Below, in pieces: positions 1-31,610 of a stretch of DNA of 32,000 bases. Position 1 is the first letter of the stretch, and each line of letters begins with the position of its first letter. Both the position numbers and the translations under genes were made by a program. Where the stretch lies: assembly GCA_002841785.1 (NCBI GenBank), contig PHAW01000009.1:6946-38945 (forward strand). Direction: 5' to 3'. The notes under the pieces are model-generated. The model did not search any database and was not told where the DNA came from. It was given only the letters and a program-made list of their open reading frames with translations. The stretch is from Deltaproteobacteria bacterium HGW-Deltaproteobacteria-3 (GTDB taxonomy: Bacteria > Desulfobacterota > Desulfobulbia > Desulfobulbales > Desulfurivibrionaceae).

Positions 1-631
1 GCCTCACGCCGCGCAATGCCGCATCGCCCAAAAATTCCTGGGGAATCCCGGCCAGGAAACCAATCCCGTCCTCGGCCAGCAGACCGGCATGATCGGCCGG
101 CAGAACACCGTCCGGCAGGATGAGCATGATATCCGGGGTGAACATCTGGCGCATGGCAAAGGCGAGGCGCATGGCCTCGAGGGAATCGCCGAGGATGACG
201 AGCTTCTTGCCGGTGGTGCGGTAGCCGTCGCAGTCAACGCAGGTAAAAACCGTCCGGCTGAAGAACCTGTTCATCCCCTTGATTTTCGGCAGATGCTCGA
301 CAACGCCGGCGGAAACAATGGCATAGGGCGAATGGTACTGGCCCTTTTCGGTGCTGACGATAAAACCCTTCTCGGCTCGAACCGAGGCAACATGCTCTTG
401 CCGGAAATCAGCGCCGAAGGACTTGATCTGTCTGATCCCGATGTCAACGAGCTCTTTGCCGGAGGTGATTTCAAGGCCGAGATAGTTTTCGATGTGCAGG
501 GCATGGCGGGTCCGCCCGCCGCCCTGATCGATGAGGAGAACCTTGCGGTTATAGCGGGCAAGATGGATGGCGGCCTGCAAACCGCCAGGCCCTGCCCCGA
601 TGATGATGCAGTCGTAGCTGTTTTCTTGCAT
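1..631 (-). CDS. Thioredoxin-disulfide reductase-like FAD-dependent pyridine nucleotide-disulfide oxidoreductase (3' end runs off the window)
   Basis: Absent from the ORF track because it has no stop inside the window. Reverse-strand ATG at 631-629. My translation is MQENSYDCIIIGAGPGGLQAAIHLARYNRKVLLIDQ... It has a GxGxxG FAD-binding start, a redox-active CVDCDG (TrxB CATCDG-type) motif, and a second nucleotide-binding strand GKKLVILG. Confidence 0.8.
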   Translation of the reverse strand, partial: MQENSYDCIIIGAGPGGLQAAIHLARYNRKVLLIDQGGGRTRHALHIENYLGLEITSGKELVDIGIRQIKSFGADFRQEHVASVRAEKGFIVSTEKGQYHSPYAIVSAGVVEHLPKIKGMNRFFSRTVFTCVDCDGYRTTGKKLVILGDSLEAMRLAFAMRQMFTPDIMLILPDGVLPADHAGLLAEDGIGFLAGIPQEFLGDAALRGVR

Positions 632-736: not shown

Positions 737-1306
737 TCAAAGGAGCCGATAGGGATAGGCGCGCTTGGTCCATTCGCTGTCGGGAAAAGCAGCGCTCAGC
801 TTTTCGTAGGCCGCCTTCAGCGGCTTGGGATCGTGCGACCGCTTGTAGCTGCAGACGCCCACCAGGAAAACGGCTTCCGGGGCGCTGCCGCTTTTGGCAT
901 ACCCGTCAACCAATTGCTCAAGGCGGGCCAACGCCTCATCAAACCGATCATTTTCAAAATGATATTTGCCAAGCCCCAGCAGGAGTGAGGGTATCAACTC
1001 CTCCGGCCCGAGGAAACCCACGGTCCGGTGATGTTCCTGGGCTTCCGGACTCAAGGTTATCAGGGTAGGCGTCCACTTGACGTTGTACTTCTCCGAATGA
1101 GGCTTGCTGTCGGAGAGAAGCCGCAGCGGGATAAAATTTTCTTCGACGAACCGGACAACCTTGCTTTCGGGATACGTAACTGTATCCATCTGTTGGCAGC
1201 CGATTCAGTTGGGGTTGAAAAAATCGAGCAGGATAGGCTTGCCCGCCTTCTGGCCCAGACACAGGGCATCGTCCATTTCCGTGCGCCATTGGATTGTTGC
1301 CGTCAT
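737..1306 (-). CDS. Thioredoxin-fold (Thioredoxin_7/DUF255-like) selenoprotein with UxxC redox motif and TPR-like C-terminal half; in-frame UGA at 1207-1205 read as selenocysteine
   Basis: The ORF track gives only 737..1189. The same frame continues upstream through a single TGA to ATG 1306-1304, which follows GAGGAGGGACAACC (strong SD). The joined protein is MTATIQWRTEMDDALCLGQKAGKPILLDFFNPN-U-IGCQQMDTVTYPESKVVRFVEENFIPLRL... The UGA sits where the first Cys of a thioredoxin WCxxC motif would be. A hairpin follows the UGA. Confidence 0.75.
1170..1187 (-). other. Candidate bacterial SECIS hairpin (GGAUAC-AGUUAC-GUAUCC)
   Basis: Perfect 6-bp stem with a 6-nt loop containing GU. It starts 17 nt 3' of the in-frame UGA at 1207-1205, within the spacing expected for bacterial SECIS elements. 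Confidence 0.5.
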
Positions 1307-1376
1307 GGTTGTCCCTCCTCGTGTGGTTAGTGGATAAACACCCCTTTATTGCAGTTTGCTCCAGAACCGCGCCGCG

Positions 1377-1625
1377 CTACATCTGCTCGATATTTTTCCT
1401 GAGCTGGCCGATCTGCAGACCCAACGACACGCATTGCTTGCCGTCCATGCATTGTTGCGCTTCGGAGTCCTCCAGGAAGGTCTTGAGCTCATGCTTGTCC
1501 TTCTTGAGATCAACGACCCAGGCCTTGTTGCTCTTGTCGTAATCAACTTTGAGGTCGATGCCGCAGGCGCCGATCTCCGGAAAAACAGCCTTGATCTTCT
1601 CACACAGCTCTTCTTTGGTGTGCAT
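1377..1625 (-). CDS. Small (82 aa) four-cysteine hypothetical protein, first gene of the redox operon
   Basis: ATG preceded by ACAGGAGGATGCGCC (AGGAGG SD). A sigma70-like promoter lies just upstream. I recognise no family; Cys at positions 8, 21, 59 and 64. Confidence 0.6.
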   Translation of the reverse strand: MHTKEELCEKIKAVFPEIGACGIDLKVDYDKSNKAWVVDLKKDKHELKTFLEDSEAQQCMDGKQCVSLGLQIGQLRKNIEQM

Positions 1626-1852: not shown

Positions 1853-2498
1853 TTACCGAAGAGCCTGGGCAATCTCCTGCTGCATGGCTTCGATAACCGC
1901 GATGGGATCAGCGGCCTTGGAGATGGGGCGGCCCACGACCACCTGGTCGGCGCCGCTTGTGATGGCGCGGCCTGCGGTCATGATCCGGGTCTGGTCGTCG
2001 GCCGTGTCCAGCACGTTGGCTCCCGGCCTGATCCCCGGCGTGACCAGCAGCAGCTTTTCGCCAAGCCCGTCGCGCAACCGGGCGGCCTCAAGACCGGAGG
2101 AGACCACCCCGTCGCAGCCCAGTTCCAGCGCCCGTTTGGCCCGGAAATAGACCAGATCCTCAATGGACTGGGTCATGCCCATGTTTTTCCTCCAGCGCGG
2201 CCCGGATTATCGGGTCGTTGCCGTGCACGGTGGCCAGGCTCACCCCGTGGCTTCTCAGTTGGGCCACGGCCAGCTTGACCGTCTCCGGGATATCGAAAAA
2301 TTTGAGATCCAGCATCACCTTGTGGCCCCGGTCGACCAGCCAGTCAACGGTCTGGAACCAGTCGGCCATGAAAAGCTGCAGTCCGACCTTGTAAAAACCA
2401 AGATGGGATTCGGTTTTTTTCACCAGCTCCCTGGCCTGCTCCGGGGTTTCCACGTCAAGGGCCAGGATGATCCGTTCTTTCAAGGGAATGTCTTTCAC
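1853..2498 (-). pseudogene. pyrF: Orotidine 5'-phosphate decarboxylase (pyrF) interrupted by a 1-nt frameshift in a homopolymer (true pseudogene or sequence error)
   Basis: Two overlapping ORFs (2160..2498 and 1853..2182) carry the N- and C-halves of PyrF (ILALDV..., FYKVGLQLF, MLDLKFFDIPETV, TVHG / LLLVTPGIRP, VVVGRPI). The span is 646 nt, not a multiple of 3. The frame switch must lie between 2160 and 2207, where a T5 run sits (2184-2188, A5 on the coding strand). Confidence 0.75.
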
Positions 2499-3741: not shown

Positions 3742-4580
3742 GGACCACCCTCCGCGGCCTGGCGCTGGATAAGGGCATGAATCTCCAAAAGATGGGCGAG
3801 AAGAGGCTCCACCCCCTTAAGCGGCATGGAATTGGGCCCGTCGCACAGGGCCTTGGAAGGATCGGGATGGATCTCCATGAACAGCCCGTCGATCCCGGCC
3901 GCCACCGCCGCCCGGGCCAGGGTCGGGATGAACTCCCGCTGGCCGCCGGAGCTGCCCCCCGCACCGCCGGGCAATTGGACGCTGTGGGTCGCATCGTAGA
4001 TGACCGGGCAGCCCAAGGAGCGCATCACCGGCAGGGAGCGCATGTCAACGACCAGATTGTTGTAGCCAAAGGTTGTGCCCCGCTCCATGAGCATCAGCCT
4101 GTTTTTTGCCACCGCATTGATCTTGTTCACCGCGTGTTGCATGTCCCAGGGTGAGACAAACTGGCCTTTTTTGAGGCTGACCACCTTGCCGCTTTTGGCC
4201 GCGGCAACCAGCAGATCGGTCTGCCTGCAGAGAAAGGCGGGAATCTGCAGGACATCCAACACCTCGGCGGCCGGCCCGACCTGGGCCACCTCATGCACAT
4301 CGGAAACCACCGGCACCCCGAAATCCCGGCGGATACCGGCCAGGATGCGCAGCCCTTCCTCCAGGCCGGGGCCACGGAAGGCTTCGAGCGAGGTCCGGTT
4401 GGCCTTGTCAAAGGAGGCCTTGAACATGTAGGAAATGCCCAACCGGGAGCAGATCTCCTGAAGGCCAGCGGCGACCTCGCGGCACAGGTCGGCCGATTCG
4501 ATGACGCACGGCCCACCGATCAATAAAAAAGGCCGGTTGGGACCGACCTCAAAAAAATCAGGGATACGAACAGGCTCCAC
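3738..4580 (-). CDS. kdsA: 2-dehydro-3-deoxyphosphooctonate aldolase (KDO8P synthase)
   Basis: FLLIGGPCVIES, KASFDKANRTS, GLPVVSDVH-like and DATHSVQLPGG motifs. The start is probably GTG 4580, which follows AAGGAGAGG; the track's TTG at 4610 has no SD. Confidence 0.9.
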   Translation of the reverse strand: MEPVRIPDFFEVGPNRPFLLIGGPCVIESADLCREVAAGLQEICSRLGISYMFKASFDKANRTSLEAFRGPGLEEGLRILAGIRRDFGVPVVSDVHEVAQVGPAAEVLDVLQIPAFLCRQTDLLVAAAKSGKVVSLKKGQFVSPWDMQHAVNKINAVAKNRLMLMERGTTFGYNNLVVDMRSLPVMRSLGCPVIYDATHSVQLPGGAGGSSGGQREFIPTLARAAVAAGIDGLFMEIHPDPSKALCDGPNSMPLKGVEPLLAHLLEIHALIQRQAAEGGP

Positions 4581-6797: not shown

Positions 6798-8294
6798 ATG
6801 TCTTTTTGTCTCTGCACAAAAATCCGCGCCATCCTGGTACCTCTCTGCCTGCTGGCCCTTGCTTTTCCAGGCTGCAGGGAGAGCAAGCCCCCGGAAAAAC
6901 CCGCCGCGCAAAAAACTGCGCCCCAGCCCGTGCGCCAGCCAGGCTGCCTGGGCTGTCACCCTGAGGTGCGGCTCGATTCCAGCCACGCTCTCGCCTGCAC
7001 CGAGTGCCACCATGGAAACCCGGAGGGCGCAACCCGGGAGCAGGCCCACGCCGGGCTTATCAGCCAGCCCGCCCATCCGGAGCGGATGCAGAAATCCTGC
7101 GGCGCATGCCATGCCAAGCAGGTGGCCGAGACCGCCTCTTCGCTGCACTTCACCGCGCACAACGAGGTGAACCTTGTCCGGTCGGCCTTCGGCGCCAGAG
7201 CCCCCCTTGCTTCGCTTACGGAAATCCCGATTCCTGAAACAATCTCCTCCCCGCTCGACCTTGCCGACGACCTGCTGCGCCGCCGCTGCCTGCGCTGCCA
7301 TGTGTACAGTTCCGGCGACGGCTATCCGGAAACAGTGCGCGGCACCGGCTGCGCCGCCTGCCATCTCCCTTACGGCAACGGCACAATGAGTAGCCACGGT
7401 TTCAGCAAGTCGCCGGCGGACAGCCAGTGCCTGCACTGCCATTACGGCAATTTCGTGGGCGCTGACTATCATGGCCGCTTTGAGCACGACTTCAACCAGG
7501 AGTACCGCACCCCCTACCGTACGGATGGCAGCGAGAACCGGCCCTATGGGGTCGAGTTCCATCAACTGGCCCCGGACATCCACCAGCAGAAGGGCATGGC
7601 CTGCATCGACTGCCACAGCGGAGGCGAGCTCATGGGCGGGCACGGTGGTGCGGGAAAAAAAGAAAAGGCGGTGACCTGCCTCGGTTGCCACGGCTGGCGT
7701 AAAGGGCTGCCCCTGCCCATGAACAATCTGCAGATTGAGGCGGACCACCTTGTACTGACCACCCGGCTGACCAACAAGAAACTCGTGGTGCCCCAACTTG
7801 TCCATCCGGCCCACAAACAGTATGAAAAAAAAGCGCATTGCACCGTATGCCACAGCCAGTGGTCCTTTAACGACCAGGGGACCCACCTGCTCCGCATCGA
7901 TAATCCCGATCATCCCGCCTGGTCGCGGCTCGGCGTGCAGGGCAGCCGGGAGGTGGAGGAACAACTGGACAATCCCGCCCCCACAGGGACTTCCCTGCGG
8001 GACAAGATCACCGGGACGTCAAGCCCAAGCCTGTGGCTCAAGGGCTACGAGTTGCGCCGCTGGGAAAGCCCCTTGATCGGGGTTGGGCCGGACGGCAAGC
8101 TGCACATCTTCCGGCCTGTTCTGGACCTGCATCTCTCCATGGTTGACGCTGACAACACAGTTATTTTCGACAATCTGGGCGTGGAGCCCAGGCAACACCG
8201 CTATCTCCCCTACACCCCGCACACCGCTGGCAAGGCCGGAGCATTTTTCACGGAACGGCTCAAACCCAACCTGCCCACAGAGAGACAACCATGA
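6798..8294 (+). CDS. Nonaheme c-type cytochrome, probable lipoprotein
   Basis: Nine CxxCH motifs (CLGCH, CTECH, CGACH, CLRCH, CAACH, CLHCH, CIDCH, CLGCH, CTVCH). Signal peptide ending LALAFPGC (lipobox-like). The C-terminal ~150 aa carry no heme motif. Confidence 0.8.
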   Translation: MSFCLCTKIRAILVPLCLLALAFPGCRESKPPEKPAAQKTAPQPVRQPGCLGCHPEVRLDSSHALACTECHHGNPEGATREQAHAGLISQPAHPERMQKSCGACHAKQVAETASSLHFTAHNEVNLVRSAFGARAPLASLTEIPIPETISSPLDLADDLLRRRCLRCHVYSSGDGYPETVRGTGCAACHLPYGNGTMSSHGFSKSPADSQCLHCHYGNFVGADYHGRFEHDFNQEYRTPYRTDGSENRPYGVEFHQLAPDIHQQKGMACIDCHSGGELMGGHGGAGKKEKAVTCLGCHGWRKGLPLPMNNLQIEADHLVLTTRLTNKKLVVPQLVHPAHKQYEKKAHCTVCHSQWSFNDQGTHLLRIDNPDHPAWSRLGVQGSREVEEQLDNPAPTGTSLRDKITGTSSPSLWLKGYELRRWESPLIGVGPDGKLHIFRPVLDLHLSMVDADNTVIFDNLGVEPRQHRYLPYTPHTAGKAGAFFTERLKPNLPTERQP

Positions 8295-9103: not shown

Positions 9104-9215
9104 TTCTGCCAGCAGACAATTGCTTGACAGCCGGAGGCCGATCGTTATATCCCATAACCAAGGGACGCTCTCTTGTAGCGATTACGCCGTTCCCACTCTG
9201 CCGAGGAGGGCTGTC

Positions 9216-10253
9216 ATGATCTTCAAAGTCTTCAAAAATCAGGAGCTCGCCCGCCTGCATGAGCTGCTGGCCGTCAACATCGTTGTCGGTCCCGTTGCCA
9301 AGGGCAACGACCGCAACGGCAAGCCCCTGTATGATTTCGATGTGGTGTACGATTTTAACGAACTCGCCCTTGACTACACCCAGACGGTGCATTCGCCCAA
9401 ACGCTTTGTCCTGCCCTACCAGGAAACCTTGTCCACTTTTGCCGTAAACCGTAAGGACTGGGAAAAGCATGTGGATTTCAATGTCTACCGCCCCCTGGTT
9501 TTCTTCGGCATGCATGCCTGCGACATCAATGCCCTGAACAAGCTGGATCTGGTTTTGGCGCAAAGCACCTACCCAAACCCGTACTACATGGGCAAACGCA
9601 AAAACCTCTTCATCATCGGAATCGACTGCAAGCCGGAACCCCAATGTTTCTGCCGCTCCATGGGAACCGACTCCGCCATCCACGGCTTTGATGTTTTCCT
9701 CACCGACCTGGGCGGCAAATATTTTGCGGAAATCCTGTCGGCCACGGCCTTTGACTTGCTGGGCCAGATCAGTTGCCAGGATCCGAGCGCCAAGGATCTC
9801 GCTCTCTACAAGCAGGCAACCAACGGAAAGAACAAGCACTACACCGCCCAGGTGGAGACCTCGGACCTCACCAAAATCCTCGACCTTGAGTTTGAATCCC
9901 CGGCCTGGGACTACTGGGGCGAAAAATGCCTCTCCTGCGGCACCTGCGCCAACGTCTGCCCCACCTGCTACTGCTATGGGGTTGAGGAGCATGTCGATCT
10001 CGACCTGCAGCACGCAAGCAAGACCAAGTCCCTGCACTCCTGCAACCTCATCGACTTTGCCAAGGTGGCCGGCGGCCACAACTTCCGGCCCACAAGCGCC
10101 AGCCGGTTGAAATACCGCTACTACCACAAGCACCGCGGCTTCGTGGAGGCCTTTGAGGAGTCACTCTGCGTGGGTTGCGGCCGTTGCGGCACAGCCTGCC
10201 TTGCCGACATCACCCCCCCCGAAGTCATCGCCAGCGTCCGCGGCAAGGAGTAA
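9216..10253 (+). CDS. [NiFe] hydrogenase group 3b (sulfhydrogenase-type) beta subunit, 4Fe-4S dicluster protein (AsrA-like)
   Basis: CLSCGTCANVCPTCYC and CVGCGRCGTAC cluster motifs. Gene order beta-gamma-delta-alpha matches Pyrococcus hydBGDA. Start at ATG 9216 after GAGGAGGG; the track's start at 9120 lacks an SD. Confidence 0.75.
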   Translation: MIFKVFKNQELARLHELLAVNIVVGPVAKGNDRNGKPLYDFDVVYDFNELALDYTQTVHSPKRFVLPYQETLSTFAVNRKDWEKHVDFNVYRPLVFFGMHACDINALNKLDLVLAQSTYPNPYYMGKRKNLFIIGIDCKPEPQCFCRSMGTDSAIHGFDVFLTDLGGKYFAEILSATAFDLLGQISCQDPSAKDLALYKQATNGKNKHYTAQVETSDLTKILDLEFESPAWDYWGEKCLSCGTCANVCPTCYCYGVEEHVDLDLQHASKTKSLHSCNLIDFAKVAGGHNFRPTSASRLKYRYYHKHRGFVEAFEESLCVGCGRCGTACLADITPPEVIASVRGKE

Positions 10254-10256
10254 ACC

Positions 10257-11159
10257 ATGCACAACAAACTCCACTTCATCGACGTTCTCGGCAGAACCAC
10301 AGGCGCACACCGCAAGCAAGACCCGGACAGCTTCGAGTACACCCTGCCCGCCGAGATCACCAGCATCTACCCGCTCACCGCCAGCGAAAAACTCTACCAG
10401 ATCCAGATCATCGACCCAGAGCTGCGGAACCGTTTCTCCTTTAAGCCGGGCCAGTTCGTAATGCTGGAGCTGCCGGGCATCGGCGAAGCGCCGTTTTCCA
10501 TCTCCTCTTCCCCGGTGCGGCGCGGCGACCTCGAACTGTGCATCCGGGCGGTGGGCAATTTCACCAACTTTCTCGCCAAGATGGAGCGGGGCGCCAAGGT
10601 GGGGATAACCGGCCCGTTCGGCACCCACTTTCCCCTGGAGAAGATGCAGGGTAACGACATCCTGCTCATCGGCGGGGGGCTGGGCATCGTGCCCCTGCGC
10701 TCTCCCCTGCTGGCCGTGCTGGAAAACCGGAGCAGATACGGGAGGGTGGACATCATGTACGGCGCCAAGAGTCCGATGGAGCTGCTCTTCACCTATCAGT
10801 ACGAAGAATGGCGCCGGTTCGACATCACCCTCGGCATCACGGTGGATAAAGCGGACAAGGGCTGGAAGGGACGCACCGGCCTGATCACCGAACTCCTGCA
10901 GGAACGAATCAAACAGACAACCAGCCTGCGCGAAAACACCTATGCCATTGTCTGCGGCCCGCCGGTCATGTTCCATTTCGTTTGCAAGATGCTGACCGAG
11001 GCCGGACTGCCCATGCAGAAGATGTTCGTCTCCCTGGAGCGCCGCATGCACTGCGGCCGGGGCAAATGCTGCCGCTGCAACATCGGCTCGACCTATACCT
11101 GCCTGGACGGCCCGGTCTTTGACTACTGGTCGGTGATGAACCTCAAGGAGGCGATCTGA
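10257..11159 (+). CDS. [NiFe] hydrogenase group 3b gamma subunit, FAD/NAD(P)-binding oxidoreductase with C-terminal 2Fe-2S site (PyrK/AsrB-like)
   Basis: FKPGQFVML and RPFSISS-like flavin motifs, a LLIGGGLGIVP NAD(P) fold, and a C-terminal CGRGKCCRC...C cluster motif. Confidence 0.75.
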   Translation: MHNKLHFIDVLGRTTGAHRKQDPDSFEYTLPAEITSIYPLTASEKLYQIQIIDPELRNRFSFKPGQFVMLELPGIGEAPFSISSSPVRRGDLELCIRAVGNFTNFLAKMERGAKVGITGPFGTHFPLEKMQGNDILLIGGGLGIVPLRSPLLAVLENRSRYGRVDIMYGAKSPMELLFTYQYEEWRRFDITLGITVDKADKGWKGRTGLITELLQERIKQTTSLRENTYAIVCGPPVMFHFVCKMLTEAGLPMQKMFVSLERRMHCGRGKCCRCNIGSTYTCLDGPVFDYWSVMNLKEAI

Positions 11160-11160
11160 G

Positions 11161-12033
11161 ATGAGCGAACAACTCTCCTACCTCGGCGTCCCCCTTGCCC
11201 GGCCAAAGGTCGGGTTCTTCGAGCTTTCCTCCTGCGAGGGGTGCCAGTTGCAGCTTTTGAATAACGAGGCCACCCTGCTGGACTTCCTCAACCTGGTGGA
11301 GATCGTCAATTTCCGCGAAGGCATGAGCGAACGCGCCGACACCTACGACATCGCCTTTGTCGAGGGCAGCGTCACCCGCAAGGACGAAATCACCCGGCTC
11401 ACCGAGATCCGCAGAAACGCCAAAATCCTGGTCGCCCTTGGTTCCTGCGCCTGCTTCGGCGGGGTCAATCAGCTCAAAAACCGCTTCCGCGATCTGGAGT
11501 GGGTAAAAAAAGAGGTGTACGGCGACTTTCCCATCGAGACCATGGAGGTGCATCCCCTGGCGGACTTTGTCCAGGTGGATCTTTCGATCTTCGGCTGCCC
11601 CATAAAAAAAGAAGAAGTCGAAAGAATCGTCACCGATCTGGTGGTGGGCAAGACGGTGCGACATCCGGAATACCCGGTGTGCATGGAGTGCAAGGCCAAC
11701 GAGAACATCTGCCTGTTCGAGCTCGGCGAGCCCTGCCTCGGCCCGGTCACCCGGGCCGGCTGCGATGCCTGGTGCCCCAGCAACCGCAGAGGGTGCTGGG
11801 GCTGCCGCGGCCCGGCGGAAACGGCCAACCTCACAGAGCTGGAAAAGATCATGCACACCTACGGTTTTGACAGCGAGACCATCCTCGACCGGTTGGAATG
11901 TTTCGGCGGCTTTGCCTCCTTTGCCGACACCCTCCGCCCCAAAAATATAGCTGAGTTGAGCAGCTTGCCTGCGCAAACGAAACTTATACCCTCTGGGTGC
12001 AAAAAAGTCCCGGCCAGGAGGAAAAAACCATGA
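11161..12033 (+). CDS. [NiFe] hydrogenase small (delta) subunit, cytoplasmic type without Tat signal
   Basis: FELSSCEGCQ, ALGSCACFGG, CMECK and GCWGCRGP Fe-S ligand motifs. No twin-arginine leader. The stop overlaps the large-subunit start. Confidence 0.8.
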   Translation: MSEQLSYLGVPLARPKVGFFELSSCEGCQLQLLNNEATLLDFLNLVEIVNFREGMSERADTYDIAFVEGSVTRKDEITRLTEIRRNAKILVALGSCACFGGVNQLKNRFRDLEWVKKEVYGDFPIETMEVHPLADFVQVDLSIFGCPIKKEEVERIVTDLVVGKTVRHPEYPVCMECKANENICLFELGEPCLGPVTRAGCDAWCPSNRRGCWGCRGPAETANLTELEKIMHTYGFDSETILDRLECFGGFASFADTLRPKNIAELSSLPAQTKLIPSGCKKVPARRKKP

Positions 12034-13304
12034 AGCTCTCCTGCGAGGTCAATGTCCACCACCTGACCCGGGTGGAAGGACACGGCAACATCCAAATCAG
12101 CATCAAGAACGGGGTGGTCAAGAAGGCGCAATGGGAGGTGGTGGAAACTCCCCGCTTCTTCGAGGCCATGCTGGTGGGCAAGCACTGGGAGAATGCGCCC
12201 TATATCTGCGGGCGGATCTGCGGGATCTGCTCCATCGGCCATACTCTGGCCAGCATCCGGGCGGTGGAAAACGCCTTCGGCATCACCCCCACGACCCAGA
12301 CCGCGAACCTGCGGCTCCTGCTCAAGCACATGGAAACCCTGCAGAGCCATATCCTGCACCTGTACTTTCTGGCGGCCCCGGATTTCCTCGGCGCGGGCAG
12401 CGTGCTGCCCCTGGCCACAACCCACCCGGAGGTGGTGCAGCGCGCCCTGCGCCTCAAGCTGCTGGCCAACGATGCCTGCGACATCATCGGCGGCAGACGG
12501 TTGCACCCCACCCGCACCGTGGTGGGCGGCTTCACCATGCTCCCGGAAAAAGGCGAGCTGGAAAAAATCCGCCAGCGGCTGCTGGCCTCGGTTCCCGACC
12601 TTCTCGCCTCGGCGGAACTGTTTAAAACCTTTGCCATCCCGGATTTCAGCCGGGAAACGGAATTCGTTTCCCTCAAGGGCGACACCAGCTATCCCTTTAT
12701 CGGCGGCGGGTTGGTTTCAACCGATGGGGTAGTCAAAAAAGAAGACCAATACCGGGCCATGACCAACGAATACTGCACACAGGGCTTCACCTCCAAGCTG
12801 AGCAAACTCTCCCGCCGCTCCTTCGCCGTTGGCGCCCTGGCGCGCCTGAACAACAACTTTCCCTTGCTGCATCCCACGGCGCGGGAGATCTCTGAATTTC
12901 TCGGCCTTGTTCCGGTCAACCACAACCCGTACATGGGCAATGTGGCCCAGTTGGTGGAATGTGTTCAGGTGGTTCTTGATTCCATGCGGCTCATCGACAC
13001 CCTGCTGGGCAGCCCATGGCAGGAGCCTCGCCAGCAGGTACAGGCGAAAAAAGGGGAAGGGGTCGGCGCGGTGGAAGTTCCCAGGGGCATCCTCTACCAT
13101 TATTATAAATTCGACACGGACGGCAAGGTGATCAAAGCGGATTGCGTTATCCCCACCAGCCAGAATCACGCCAACATCCTGCACGACATCGAGGCGCTGG
13201 CTGGCCAGTATGCCAAAACCGGCAAGCAAGACCGGGAGATCGAACTGCTGGCGGAGATGCTGGTCAGGGCGTACGACCCCTGCATCTCCTGTTCGGTCCA
13301 TTAA
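12030..13304 (+). CDS. [NiFe] hydrogenase large (alpha) subunit
   Basis: N-terminal RVEGHG and RICGICSIGH (CxxC Ni ligands); C-terminal DPCISCSVH (DPCxxCxxH). Start at ATG 12030 after GGAGGAAAAAACC, an ATGA overlap with the delta-subunit stop. Confidence 0.9.
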   Translation: MKLSCEVNVHHLTRVEGHGNIQISIKNGVVKKAQWEVVETPRFFEAMLVGKHWENAPYICGRICGICSIGHTLASIRAVENAFGITPTTQTANLRLLLKHMETLQSHILHLYFLAAPDFLGAGSVLPLATTHPEVVQRALRLKLLANDACDIIGGRRLHPTRTVVGGFTMLPEKGELEKIRQRLLASVPDLLASAELFKTFAIPDFSRETEFVSLKGDTSYPFIGGGLVSTDGVVKKEDQYRAMTNEYCTQGFTSKLSKLSRRSFAVGALARLNNNFPLLHPTAREISEFLGLVPVNHNPYMGNVAQLVECVQVVLDSMRLIDTLLGSPWQEPRQQVQAKKGEGVGAVEVPRGILYHYYKFDTDGKVIKADCVIPTSQNHANILHDIEALAGQYAKTGKQDREIELLAEMLVRAYDPCISCSVH

Positions 13305-29667: not shown

Positions 29668-31473
29668 TCATGGGGCAATCTTTATATCTCTTAAGGTGGC
29701 GATAACCCTCAACAACGCTCTGGCTGCTTTTTCCGGCCCGGACGCTTCATACCCTGGAATGCCAAGCCGAGTCCGCAACTGACCGACCTTTACTCCGGAC
29801 TCGAATGCCGCCTCAAAAACCTTCCCGGCCAAATCTTCATGCGACTCTTTATATTGTGGCGGGCCAAAGATATTGGCAAAATACGAATGAACCAGACCGG
29901 TTGATGTCGTCGTTCCCTTGGCCATTACCGCCCCTTCCCGGAAAACGTTCAGCGCCTGGGCAGGGCTGGTAAATTGCTCAAGAATCGGATGCTCCGGGTC
30001 GACCTCTTCATAATTGTTGGCGTACAACAGGTAATCCAGAGGATACCCTTTCAGAACATCTTCAATGGTCGCCACCGGCAGCACGACACGGGCGTTGACC
30101 TTCTGCGGACTCATGATGATGGCCCTGTCAATCTGCCCGAAAGCATAGCCTTGCTGCAGGTCATCCAACCGGATAAATGCGCCGATTTCCGTGCCGTAGG
30201 CAATAAGCCGTCCTGCCTCATCAATCTCGATCGAACCCATGTCATCGGCGACAATCCGCATTTCCCGAATAAACGTTTCCCCGAGAATCCGGAATGCTTC
30301 CAGCGTTTCCGATTTTCCAGCAGCCGTATCCCCGATAAGCAGGATGTTAGCCTCTATACCGGTTTTGACAAAACCGCCTTTGAGGGAAATATGCACCATG
30401 GCCCCATGAAAAGGCAGGCGCCCGCGCTTCATCATGATCACATTGTGAAGGGTCAGGGTCATTTTTTTGAGATAGCCGAAATAGCCGAACCGATCTTCAA
30501 GCGGCACAGCTGCGACCAGCAAGTTATGCCCGGCATCATCGAAAAATACCGTTGGCAGATCACCGAATTGAACCATTTGTTCAGGAGGAGCGCCAAAAAC
30601 ATATACTGCATCGGGACCGGCACAAATCTGCTCGTCCGTGGCCAACTCAAAGAGGTTTGCGACAGAGGAGCCCAGCCCCATAAATTGGTGGTGAAAGTAT
30701 ATAAAAACAACGAGCGATCCGACCTGCGCCGGATAACAGAGGAAATCCTCCGGCGCTAAAACCAGGTCACTCAGCGGGTTGACCTCTGTCCGCTGGAATT
30801 GTCCGGTGCGCTTGTTTGTCGGGGGATCGATAATCAGGGGAGGAGCAATCCATATCTGACGGATAAACGGTATTTCACCCAATATTTTCTCATACGGTGT
30901 CGGCAGGCCGGAAACTTTTGCCACAGCAATAATGCCGACCTTGCATCCAGCCGCAACATGTCGATATACCCGAGGATGACTGCCTGTGATATTCTCGCAA
31001 ATATTGCGATACAACGAGCGAACTTGATGCGCCAAGGAGACAAGCGTCTCATTAAAAGCACGGTGGGGACGCTGATCCATGCAGTTTGGCCCGGGCTCGG
31101 AATACAGCACCATATAACGATCAAAGGATCGCCAATAATCGTACAGTTTCTCCACGAATTCATGAAAAGCCTGCTGCCGCAGCGGGTCAGACAAGAAAGC
31201 CGCCGAGGGGAGCAGAGAAACTACCTGCGCCACCGGATGTTCGCTCAGTGCTTTCAGGATATTGATGAACAGTCTCTTATCCCTGTCACTCTCGAGACAT
31301 AAGCCCAATTCCGACAACAGCGGTGATTCGTCGCAACGGAGATCAGCTATGTACTGGTTGAGCAACTCGTCGAATACTTCACTGTGAATGAGCTCTCTTT
31401 GCGACTCGCAGATCTTGCCGTCCGTGCTGATGATAATTTGCTTCCCTTGCCTGTGGATTTTTTTTGCCGCCAT
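29668..31473 (-). CDS. Uncharacterised ~600-aa protein with a C-terminal PEP-carboxykinase/HPr-kinase-superfamily nucleotide-binding catalytic core
   Basis: FGYLKKMTLTLHN...GRLPFHGAMV...LLIGDTAAGKSETLE (P-loop at 30333-30307)...IVADDMGSIEI...GTEIGAFIR...VNARVVLP. The order and spacing parallel ATP-PEPCK motifs, and the P-loop is HprK-like (GKSE). The start is ambiguous: ATG 31473 (preferred) or the track's 31569. Confidence 0.6.
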   Translation of the reverse strand: MAAKKIHRQGKQIIISTDGKICESQRELIHSEVFDELLNQYIADLRCDESPLLSELGLCLESDRDKRLFINILKALSEHPVAQVVSLLPSAAFLSDPLRQQAFHEFVEKLYDYWRSFDRYMVLYSEPGPNCMDQRPHRAFNETLVSLAHQVRSLYRNICENITGSHPRVYRHVAAGCKVGIIAVAKVSGLPTPYEKILGEIPFIRQIWIAPPLIIDPPTNKRTGQFQRTEVNPLSDLVLAPEDFLCYPAQVGSLVVFIYFHHQFMGLGSSVANLFELATDEQICAGPDAVYVFGAPPEQMVQFGDLPTVFFDDAGHNLLVAAVPLEDRFGYFGYLKKMTLTLHNVIMMKRGRLPFHGAMVHISLKGGFVKTGIEANILLIGDTAAGKSETLEAFRILGETFIREMRIVADDMGSIEIDEAGRLIAYGTEIGAFIRLDDLQQGYAFGQIDRAIIMSPQKVNARVVLPVATIEDVLKGYPLDYLLYANNYEEVDPEHPILEQFTSPAQALNVFREGAVMAKGTTTSTGLVHSYFANIFGPPQYKESHEDLAGKVFEAAFESGVKVGQLRTRLGIPGYEASGPEKAARALLRVIATLRDIKIAP

Positions 31474-31610
31474 AATGAGTCGCTCCGACCAACTGCTTGA
31501 ATACAAAAAAAAAGGCCGAAGAATCCTTAAAAAGGATGCATCGACCTTCATTCCAAGAACCGCACTCAACCCTTGAGTCGGCTGGACAAAATATCAGATA
31601 TGTTTCAGGC

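Follow-up and report, generated by a model that had tools for sequence, protein, structure and literature searches.

We analysed a stretch of 32,000 nucleotides (hereafter the window, always meant at its full length) from contig PHAW01000009.1 of Deltaproteobacteria bacterium HGW-Deltaproteobacteria-3, a member of the Desulfurivibrionaceae, and identified at positions 737-1306 of its minus strand what is very probably a selenoprotein gene, in which the UGA at codon 34 would be decoded as selenocysteine (Sec) and the hairpin at 1187-1170 would act as the selenocysteine insertion sequence (SECIS) element. Region 737-1306 is confirmed to be a single gene, and the 150-residue "hypothetical protein" is its back end. 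The parts of the gene on which the argument leans are the following:

737..1306, minus strand: complete predicted selenoprotein coding sequence, obtained by translation, with 189 codons (M1...U34...L189) and its own TGA stop at 739-737
1205..1207, minus strand: predicted Sec codon UGA, codon 34, first residue of the U-I-G-C redox motif (1207-1196)
1314..1320, minus strand: Shine-Dalgarno sequence GAGGAGG, seen in the sequence, with a 7-nt spacer to the ATG at 1306-1304
1170..1187, minus strand: SECIS-type hairpin, with 5' arm GGAUAC (1187-1182), loop AGUUAC (1181-1176) and 3' arm GUAUCC (1175-1170)

An earlier note on this DNA had pointed out that the listed open reading frame (ORF) 737..1189 (minus strand, product of 150 residues) starts at an internal ATG and that a single stop interrupts the same frame upstream. 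Both statements hold: translation of the minus strand gives exactly one in-frame TGA inside the 189-codon frame, at 1207-1205, and 5' of it 33 sense codons lead in the same frame back to the ATG at 1306-1304, which is preceded, as the note had also claimed, by a Shine-Dalgarno sequence (GAGGAGG, 1320-1314). By inspection, no purine-rich Shine-Dalgarno sequence precedes the internal Met codon (AUG 1189). The restored N-terminal region reads ...KAGKPILLDFFNPN-U-IGCQQMD..., and the restored protein can be written MTATIQWRTEMDDALCLGQKAGKPILLDFFNPN-U-IGCQQMDTVTYPESK....

A homolog search with the window protein returned 1,432 clusters, the size of the family being roughly 1,900 protein clusters at 90% identity, and a scan of one genome per species located relatives in 518 genomes. 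The best 80 loci, at 57-95% identity, were analysed; they represent Desulfurivibrionaceae, Desulfobulbaceae, Desulfocapsa, Hydrosulfovibrio ferrireducens, Syntrophaceae, Desulfomonilaceae, Desulfobacterales, Nitrospirota/Thermodesulfovibrionia and other lineages. Of the TGA-type sequences, 64 are unique, gapless 189-codon genes, and 65 unique gapless orthologs were used together with their flanks. Some orthologs (59-82% identity) lie in metagenome-assembled genomes labelled Draconibacterium orientale, Clostridia, Gammaproteobacteria and Candidatus Brocadia (L022, L055, L072 and L083), unexpected labels that suggest mis-binned contigs or horizontal transfer.

The TGA is found at codon 34 in all 80 loci, collinear and with conserved residues on either side down to 57% identity, and the exact window gene sequence is present on at least 23 independent contigs. 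Orthologs that begin at the internal Met, a possibility raised in the earlier note, were not encountered, since the 33 upstream codons are kept in frame in 80/80 loci. Judged by their third-position periodicity, which is like that of the rest of the gene, these codons are coding: among the 65 orthologs, the entropies at codon positions 1/2/3 are 0.69/0.67/1.29 for codons 2-33, upstream of the TGA, and 0.73/0.51/1.41 for codons 41-189, downstream of it, and the flanks are without periodicity (5' flank, 1.66/1.67/1.65). The start codon is ATG in 64 and GTG in one of the 65, and a purine-rich tract resembling a Shine-Dalgarno sequence stands at the same distance upstream in each of the 12 ortholog flanks printed. 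The terminal stop varies among the same 65 orthologs (TGA in 33, TAG in 20 and TAA in 12), whereas the internal codon is always TGA.

We noticed that the position of the UGA is occupied by cysteine in orthologs carrying TGC there (L002-L004, L092 and L093), in which the motif reads CIGC in place of UIGC. The true Cys forms (the Geobacteraceae protein P0079/L002-L004, P0072, P0102 and a 186-residue Geobacter/Geomonas clade) are all C-I-G-C, and codon 34 also aligns with the first Cys of the WCGPC motif in PDB entry 2kuc. The proposal that the TGA falls on the first redox Cys is borne out by this alignment with Cys-containing orthologs; the WCxxC parent motif given along with it is not, since the Cys forms of the family read E/G-C-I-G-C. 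Aligned in this way, the UGA is a sense codon, conserved at the place that the nucleophilic Cys takes in a CxxC motif.

Among the alternatives to selenocysteine, the one that survives best, itself very improbable, is that the UGA is read as a standard amino acid, either as Trp or Gly through an alternative genetic code or as Cys or Trp by near-cognate suppression that the hairpin would stimulate. Hairpins 3' of a stop codon are known in principle to promote readthrough, direct inspection of the window and the locus flanks revealed no Sec machinery, and database entries of about 189 residues mostly show W at the TGA position (P0026, P0034, P0037, P0041, P0042 and others). In one such locus (L001, 190-759), nevertheless, the DNA is ggt TGA att ggc tgt, and translation table 11 does not reproduce the database protein of that locus, so the W entries are an artefact of gene calling under code 4 on short contigs, and represent further TGA-type genes. 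Moreover, TGA terminates 15 of the 28 long ORFs of the window, the selenoprotein gene itself included, which means that the organism does not use a genetic code in which TGA is sense. Against a standard amino acid also stand the residue aligned in non-TGA orthologs, the catalytic CxxC Cys, which makes a classic Sec/Cys pair, the hairpin described below, which fits bacterial SECIS geometry with G-U in its loop, and the host lineage and its relatives, which are reported Sec users.

Less probable still, to the point of being hardly credible, is that the TGA is a real stop, whether in a pseudogene, by nonsense mutation or through a sequencing error, with only the 150-residue piece or nothing being made, or that the region holds two genes of 33 and 150 codons. 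Public annotation does call the 150-residue ORF almost everywhere, sometimes with a separate 33-residue ORF, and the window has one apparent frameshift, in pyrF. But the recurrence of the TGA at the same codon in 80 species-level genomes and of the exact sequence on so many contigs, the coding selection on the upstream 33 codons in the same frame with their nearly invariant ATG start, and the lack of a purine-rich Shine-Dalgarno sequence at the internal Met all speak against it. A real stop would in addition be expected to alternate between TGA, TAA and TAG in the manner of the terminal codon, and the 150-residue piece is missing beta1/alpha1 as well as the redox motif from a fold that is predicted with high confidence (predicted local distance difference test, pLDDT, 96.5).

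The hairpin reported in the earlier note (GGAUAC-AGUUAC-GUAUCC, with GU in its loop) is present at 1187-1170. It begins 17 nt past the UGA, on the G of the internal ATG, and positions 2-3 of its loop are G-U. Folding of the single sequence is unremarkable, so the hairpin taken alone is no evidence, and its significance comes only through comparison of orthologs. The stem is encoded by a conserved peptide, M-D-(T/A)-V-T-Y-P, in which protein and RNA constraints are superimposed; protein conservation therefore confounds a simple comparison, and the informative positions are the synonymous sites. Among the 64 unique orthologs, exactly 3 of 82 conserved degenerate codon columns show zero synonymous variation, namely Asp+7 (GAU, 63/63), Thr+10 (ACG, 60/60) and Tyr+11 (UAU, 63/63), and these are precisely the codons whose third base lies in the stem, a coincidence with a chance of 1 in C(82,3) = 88,560. 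Synonymous variation is free at other columns of Asp, Thr, Tyr and Pro, among them Pro+12, which lies immediately beyond the stem.

Unguided RNAalifold on 73 sequences gave the 6-bp hairpin as the only consensus structure. All 432 of 432 cells of the stem are paired, compared with 17-62% in slid controls, and two pairs show double compensatory changes: in L076, GAU>GGA and UAU>UUC (D>G and Y>F) turn A-U and U-A pairs into G-C and A-U, and the stem is kept. The only Tyr codon variant seen, UAC, is in L089 from the Sec branch of Geobacteraceae (GGU...UAU), where the partner base is G. In Sec-type genes of this Geobacteraceae branch, the hairpin has 7 bp and a loop of 4 nt and folds at -9.0 to -11.6 kcal/mol. 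In the Cys-type genes L092 and L093, which carry UGC, the stem sites read GAC, ACU and UUU and no hairpin forms (+0.4 kcal/mol), and the Cys gene L002, a close relative of Sec forms, has only a relic hairpin with a U.U mismatch; Cys-type orthologs without the hairpin still keep the same Met codon. On this comparative evidence, in which the Cys-type genes serve as a decisive natural control, the stem is under RNA-level selection that is linked to the presence of the UGA.

The bacterial SECIS model describes an apical loop of 3-9 nt, an upper stem of 4-16 bp and a UGA-to-loop distance of 16-37 nt (PMC13188914 Fig. 2), with G in the first two loop positions, usually followed by G/U, and a minimum free energy of at most -7.5 kcal/mol (PMC13188914). 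The window element has a 6-nt loop and a 6-bp stem, and the UGA-to-loop spacing is 23 nt, within the published range, in every gapless ortholog. The loops are AGUUAC (43), GGUUAC (14), GGUCAC (6), CGUGAC (5), AGUUUC (4) and AGGUAC (1), with G invariant at position 2. The suggestion that the hairpin is compatible with a bacterial SECIS is thereby strengthened, as it agrees with 4 of the 5 published values, is borderline for the energy threshold, and has a stem selected only where the UGA is present. Compared with the bacterial SECIS of the Zhang and Gladyshev model (PMC13188914), whose prototype is E. coli fdhF, it likewise lies in the ORF just 3' of the UGA, but it is minimal, without the conserved lower stem or bulged U, and sits wholly within conserved peptide codons. 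A further feature encloses it:

1148..1206, minus strand: predicted outer stem, pairing the UGA region with GUCCGGUUC; the 60-nt segment folds at a minimum free energy of -18.4 kcal/mol

The segment comprising the UGA and 40 nt folds at -8.2 kcal/mol, and the value for the 60-nt segment is reached through this outer stem, which is not conserved across the family and which, as a prediction only, would be clade-specific at most.

That the hairpin is some other RNA element, acting in internal initiation at AUG 1189 or in mRNA stability and unrelated to UGA decoding, is as remote as the real stop: its first base is indeed the G of the internal AUG, its stem is short, with marginal energy, and it matches no Rfam family, yet the hairpin and the frozen sites occur only in UGA-type genes and are lost in Cys-type orthologs that keep the Met codon, its spacing and loop composition match the SECIS model, and the internal AUG has no Shine-Dalgarno sequence. 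A pseudogene, an alternative genetic code and an unrelated RNA element were accordingly rejected on conservation, TGA-stop usage and the loss of the hairpin in Cys forms.

Several observations weigh against reading 737-1306 as a selenoprotein gene with a SECIS. In the single sequence, a z of -1.17 was obtained for the 76-nt segment, whose fold is equalled or bettered by 28 of 200 shuffles. The hairpin alone reaches -6.4 kcal/mol (-7.2 in context; ortholog median -6.4), just short of -7.5. RNAalifold across the family did not find the conserved lower stem or the bulged U, and a search of the whole window against Rfam at the gathering threshold gave no match. Of the TGA-type orthologs, L038 (about 4366-4413) alone has a mismatched SECIS stem: its D>A change (GAU>GCU) yields an uncompensated C.U, which marks either a weaker element or a recent mutation. 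The functional link to a neighbouring flavoprotein, described below, is confined to the close clade. Finally, selA, selB, selC and selD were not found in the 32-kb window or in the locus flanks.

Other inspections of the window were similarly negative: Pfam annotation of about 30 window ORFs showed no other selenoproteins, ARAGORN detected neither a tRNA in the window nor a tRNA-Sec in 84 loci, and the search for other TGA-split ORF pairs in the same frame gave, in the window, only out-of-frame shadows typical of GC-rich DNA. Since the window and flanks hold no sel genes, the Sec competence of the source organism rests on its relatives and on the literature. Strain MLMS-1 is presumably a close relative of Desulfurivibrio. 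It has the Sec insertion machinery (PMC1914089), Desulfurivibrio alkaliphilus is listed as a Sec-type representative of the MccSep selenoenzyme (PMC13510729), and 56 selenoprotein genes are present in some genomes of Desulfobulbia (PMC13326102). Among bacteria, Desulfobacterota make the richest use of Sec, and thioredoxin-fold UxxC selenoproteins with a SECIS inside the ORF are well known (PMC1794560, PMC1976440, PMC13188914).

The selenoprotein reading also gives the product a complete fold, composed of two predicted domains:

989..1306, minus strand: thioredoxin-fold domain, DsbD-gamma/Thioredoxin_7-like, about residues 1-106 (Pfam, PDB profiles, AlphaFold2/Foldseek)
740..988, minus strand: C-terminal four-helix domain like tetratricopeptide repeats (TPR), CpoB/YbgF-like, about residues 107-189 (PDB profiles, AlphaFold2 model)

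When the readthrough protein was scored against Pfam with U replaced by C (gathering cut-off 27 bits), Thioredoxin_2 rose from 19.2 to 41.5 bits, and Thioredoxin_7 (32.8) and Thioredox_DsbH/DUF255 (29.4) were added. The Thioredoxin_7/DUF255-type assignment of the earlier note was therefore recovered, with Thioredoxin_2, Thioredoxin_7 and DsbH above the cut-off only with readthrough, and its remark that the 150-residue remainder would lack the catalytic motif agrees with the absence of any thioredoxin match above the Pfam threshold when the UGA is not read through. Pfam matches of the C-terminal half to TPR are sub-threshold. Against PDB profiles, the N-domain matches 2kuc (a Bacteroides putative disulfide isomerase, 1e-11) and DsbD-gamma (4e-9), and the C-domain matches CpoB (6g5s, 4.6e-10) and YbgF (2xev).

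We modelled the closest true-Cys ortholog (P0079, 56% identical to the window protein) with AlphaFold2 and obtained a pLDDT of 96.5 and a predicted template modelling score (pTM) of 0.90. In this model, the CxxC is at the N-terminus of a helix (32-41) of the thioredoxin fold, four TPR-like helices (97-114, 118-131, 138-153 and 157-169) come after that fold, and the thioredoxin domain superposes on DsbD-gamma, DsbH and 2kuc with a root-mean-square deviation (rmsd) of 2-3 A (Foldseek). The product is, as modelled, a DsbD-gamma-like thioredoxin domain fused to a CpoB-like TPR domain. Because inspection of the sequence revealed no apparent signal peptide or hydrophobic segment, the 189-residue protein is probably cytoplasmic.

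We hypothesize that translation would reach the UGA with the hairpin (6 bp, 6-nt loop) lying 17 nt downstream, within the M-D-T-V-T-Y-P codons, and that the hairpin, as a SECIS dependent on SelB, would recruit SelB together with GTP and Sec-tRNA(Sec), such that the UGA at codon 34 would be read as Sec and not as a stop, as in the standard bacterial SelA/SelB/SelC/SelD pathway; the terminal UGA of the same gene, which has no such hairpin, would terminate. Sec34 and Cys37 would then, as their fold suggests, cycle between selenol/thiol and selenenylsulfide, reducing or exchanging disulfides of partner proteins. The TPR domain would probably bind a client or partner protein, and in Desulfurivibrionaceae the adjacent flavoprotein of the thioredoxin reductase (TrxR) family would probably re-reduce the selenoprotein. 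This specific scheme of redox partners, which draws on the fold and the neighbourhood, is put forward tentatively and may well have to be replaced.

Concerning the identity of the family, a "thiol:disulfide interchange protein" selenoprotein family was described by Kryukov and Gladyshev in 2004, with PF13098, a UxxC motif and WP_011366075.1 as representative (PMC13188914, PMC9312934), and was reported in Syntrophus aciditrophicus, Geobacter metallireducens and G. uraniireducens (PMC1794560). Comparing domain, motif, lineage and DsbD-like naming, we regard the window family as probably identical to it. The window protein shares with it PF13098 as best Pfam domain and the UxxC motif, and the host lineages overlap (Syntrophaceae L048 and L064, and a Geobacteraceae branch with both Sec and Cys forms). 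Named entries nearest to the N-domain of the protein are those of DsbD, a "thiol:disulfide interchange protein", by which the old name would be accounted for, and the 2004 family is the only thioredoxin-type entry in the 2026 family table that is compatible with the domain matches of the window protein. On the other hand, neither a TPR domain nor a neighbouring flavoprotein figures in the published descriptions, and no named G. metallireducens or S. aciditrophicus entry came up when homologs were sought with the window protein, the Geobacteraceae Cys form or a Syntrophaceae ortholog.

It is unlikely, though worth stating, that the family is instead a never described thioredoxin-TPR UxxC family, a CnoX-like "seleno-chaperedoxin" which in Desulfurivibrionaceae would form a dedicated redox pair with the divergent TrxR-family flavoprotein. 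E. coli YbbN/CnoX (PDB 3qou) is the best whole-chain structural match, with thioredoxin followed by TPR (196 columns, E = 4.4e-07); it has a cytoplasmic thioredoxin plus TPR architecture, both domains of which align with the P0079 model. The likeness is at the fold level only, with 14% identity, an rmsd of 11.9 A due to a different domain orientation and a TMq of 0.44, and CnoX is about 100 residues longer, with more TPR units than the window protein. E. coli CnoX is also not known to have a CxxC motif, and no CnoX-type family was among the Pfam and NCBIfam matches. DsbD-gamma, DsbH and Thioredoxin_7-type domains superpose on the thioredoxin domain at 26-29% identity, with CxxC in the same place; they are periplasmic domains of membrane-bound or exported proteins, whereas the window protein, as predicted from its sequence, has no signal peptide or membrane segment and has a TPR tail and Sec. 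If the family were indeed undescribed, it would be among the more widespread selenoprotein families (518 species genomes, roughly 1,900 clusters).

The gene is flanked on the same strand by two others that recur in part of the family:

1..631, minus strand: gene of a divergent, low-molecular-weight TrxR-family flavoprotein with a CVDC redox motif (Pyr_redox_2), cut by the window edge
1377..1625, minus strand: gene of an 82-residue protein with four Cys (C8, C21, C59 and C65), without Pfam or NCBIfam match

The flavoprotein gene is directly downstream in 20-22 loci, only in the close Desulfurivibrionaceae-type clade of about 20-25 loci, and starts a median of 29 nt after the selenoprotein stop in that clade and 105 nt after it in the window. 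A full-length ortholog of the flavoprotein can be aligned from end to end with the TrxR model TIGR01292 but scores 118 bits, below the cut-off of 343 bits. Its best solved relatives, by sequence similarity only, are Gll2934 (5n0j, 2.4e-32) and Slr0600 (5jri, 1.4e-31), ahead of classical NADPH-dependent TrxRs, and the CxxC is in the same position. Gll2934 and Slr0600 are cyanobacterial proteins of the DDOR (diflavin-linked disulfide oxidoreductase) type, which is not known to use NAD(P)H. By eye, the GxGxxA region of the flavoprotein neighbour looks degenerate, an observation to be taken as a lead only. A conserved 98-residue helical protein with a CxxxxC motif and without family follows the TrxR-like gene (L017 7611-7907; L085 4491-4787), in a part of the locus that lies past the left edge of the window, and a 2-oxoacid:ferredoxin oxidoreductase gene comes after it in about 17-20 close loci.

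The 82-residue protein gene is directly upstream on the same strand in 24-25 loci, some of them distant (L032, L036, L041, L069 and L075), and this recurrence suggests that its product may be functionally linked to the selenoprotein. A promoter-like site was identified upstream of it (1700-1672, minus strand), and no terminator-like site was found among the 82-residue protein gene, the selenoprotein gene and the flavoprotein gene. No universal neighbour was found across the family; the neighbours in Geobacteraceae differ (e.g., rsmB, an M48 peptidase gene and a PLD-family gene).

The window is otherwise ordinary chromosome, with pyrF, lptC, kdsC, kdsA, pyrG, a multihaem cytochrome gene, an RlpA-like gene, a NiFe hydrogenase cluster, motAB, purH, thiH/thiG/thiF, gap, a SulP transporter gene and purE. 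The pyrF gene is split in the window (1853-2498, minus strand) into ORFs 2160-2498 and 1853-2182 in two frames and is intact, with 235 residues, in orthologous loci (L017 4746-5453; L085-L087), the split being either a frameshift error in the assembly or a strain-specific pseudogene. A four-gene cluster at 9120-13304 (plus strand), encoding a Fer4_22 protein, an FAD/NAD-binding protein and the small and large subunits of a NiFe hydrogenase, looks like the group-3 sulfhydrogenase type, and the stop of its large subunit gene is TAA. The 498-residue multihaem cytochrome (Cytochrome_C7; 6798-8294, plus strand) overlaps the start of the RlpA-like gene by 4 nt, and was inspected since the multihaem Sec enzyme MccSep is known in relatives; no in-frame TGA extension of this gene was found. 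The N-terminus of a 1,191-residue window ORF resembles pyruvate:ferredoxin oxidoreductase by eye, and a 633-residue ORF (29668-31569, minus strand) has no Pfam match at 1e-5.

The gene at 737-1306 is of an ordinary kind for sulfur-cycling bacteria, truncated almost everywhere in public annotation. The closest homolog clusters are mostly annotated at exactly 150 residues, with the same truncation, and in RefSeq the Thiovibrio frasassiensis ortholog is a 150-residue hypothetical protein. The NCBIfam DsbD and TsoB models weakly match the region of the thioredoxin domain, and the selenoprotein models TsoB (NF045694), VPGUxxT (NF041382 and NF041383) and Trx7/PDZ (NF041199) gave 41.4, 24.7, 24.2 and 17.4 bits against cut-offs of 805, 275, 350 and 300, respectively, all far below; NCBIfam has no model that captures the family. 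Across roughly 1,900 clusters and 518 genomes, the gene is recorded as a 150-residue "hypothetical", "TPR repeat" or "TolA-binding" protein that lacks the catalytic half, and a profile with a Sec exception would correct both the truncated and the W-containing records. The minimal SECIS, lying fully inside conserved-peptide codons, is a possible benchmark for SECIS predictors.

We consider this a sound rescue of an annotation within a known kind of gene, of modest surprise, which overturns no current understanding. For the biology of these organisms, the gene would extend the selenoproteomes of sulfur-cycling Desulfobacterota and Nitrospirota by a thiol oxidoreductase dependent on Sec, one that would combine, in one clade, a TPR partner-binding domain with a TrxR-family partner.

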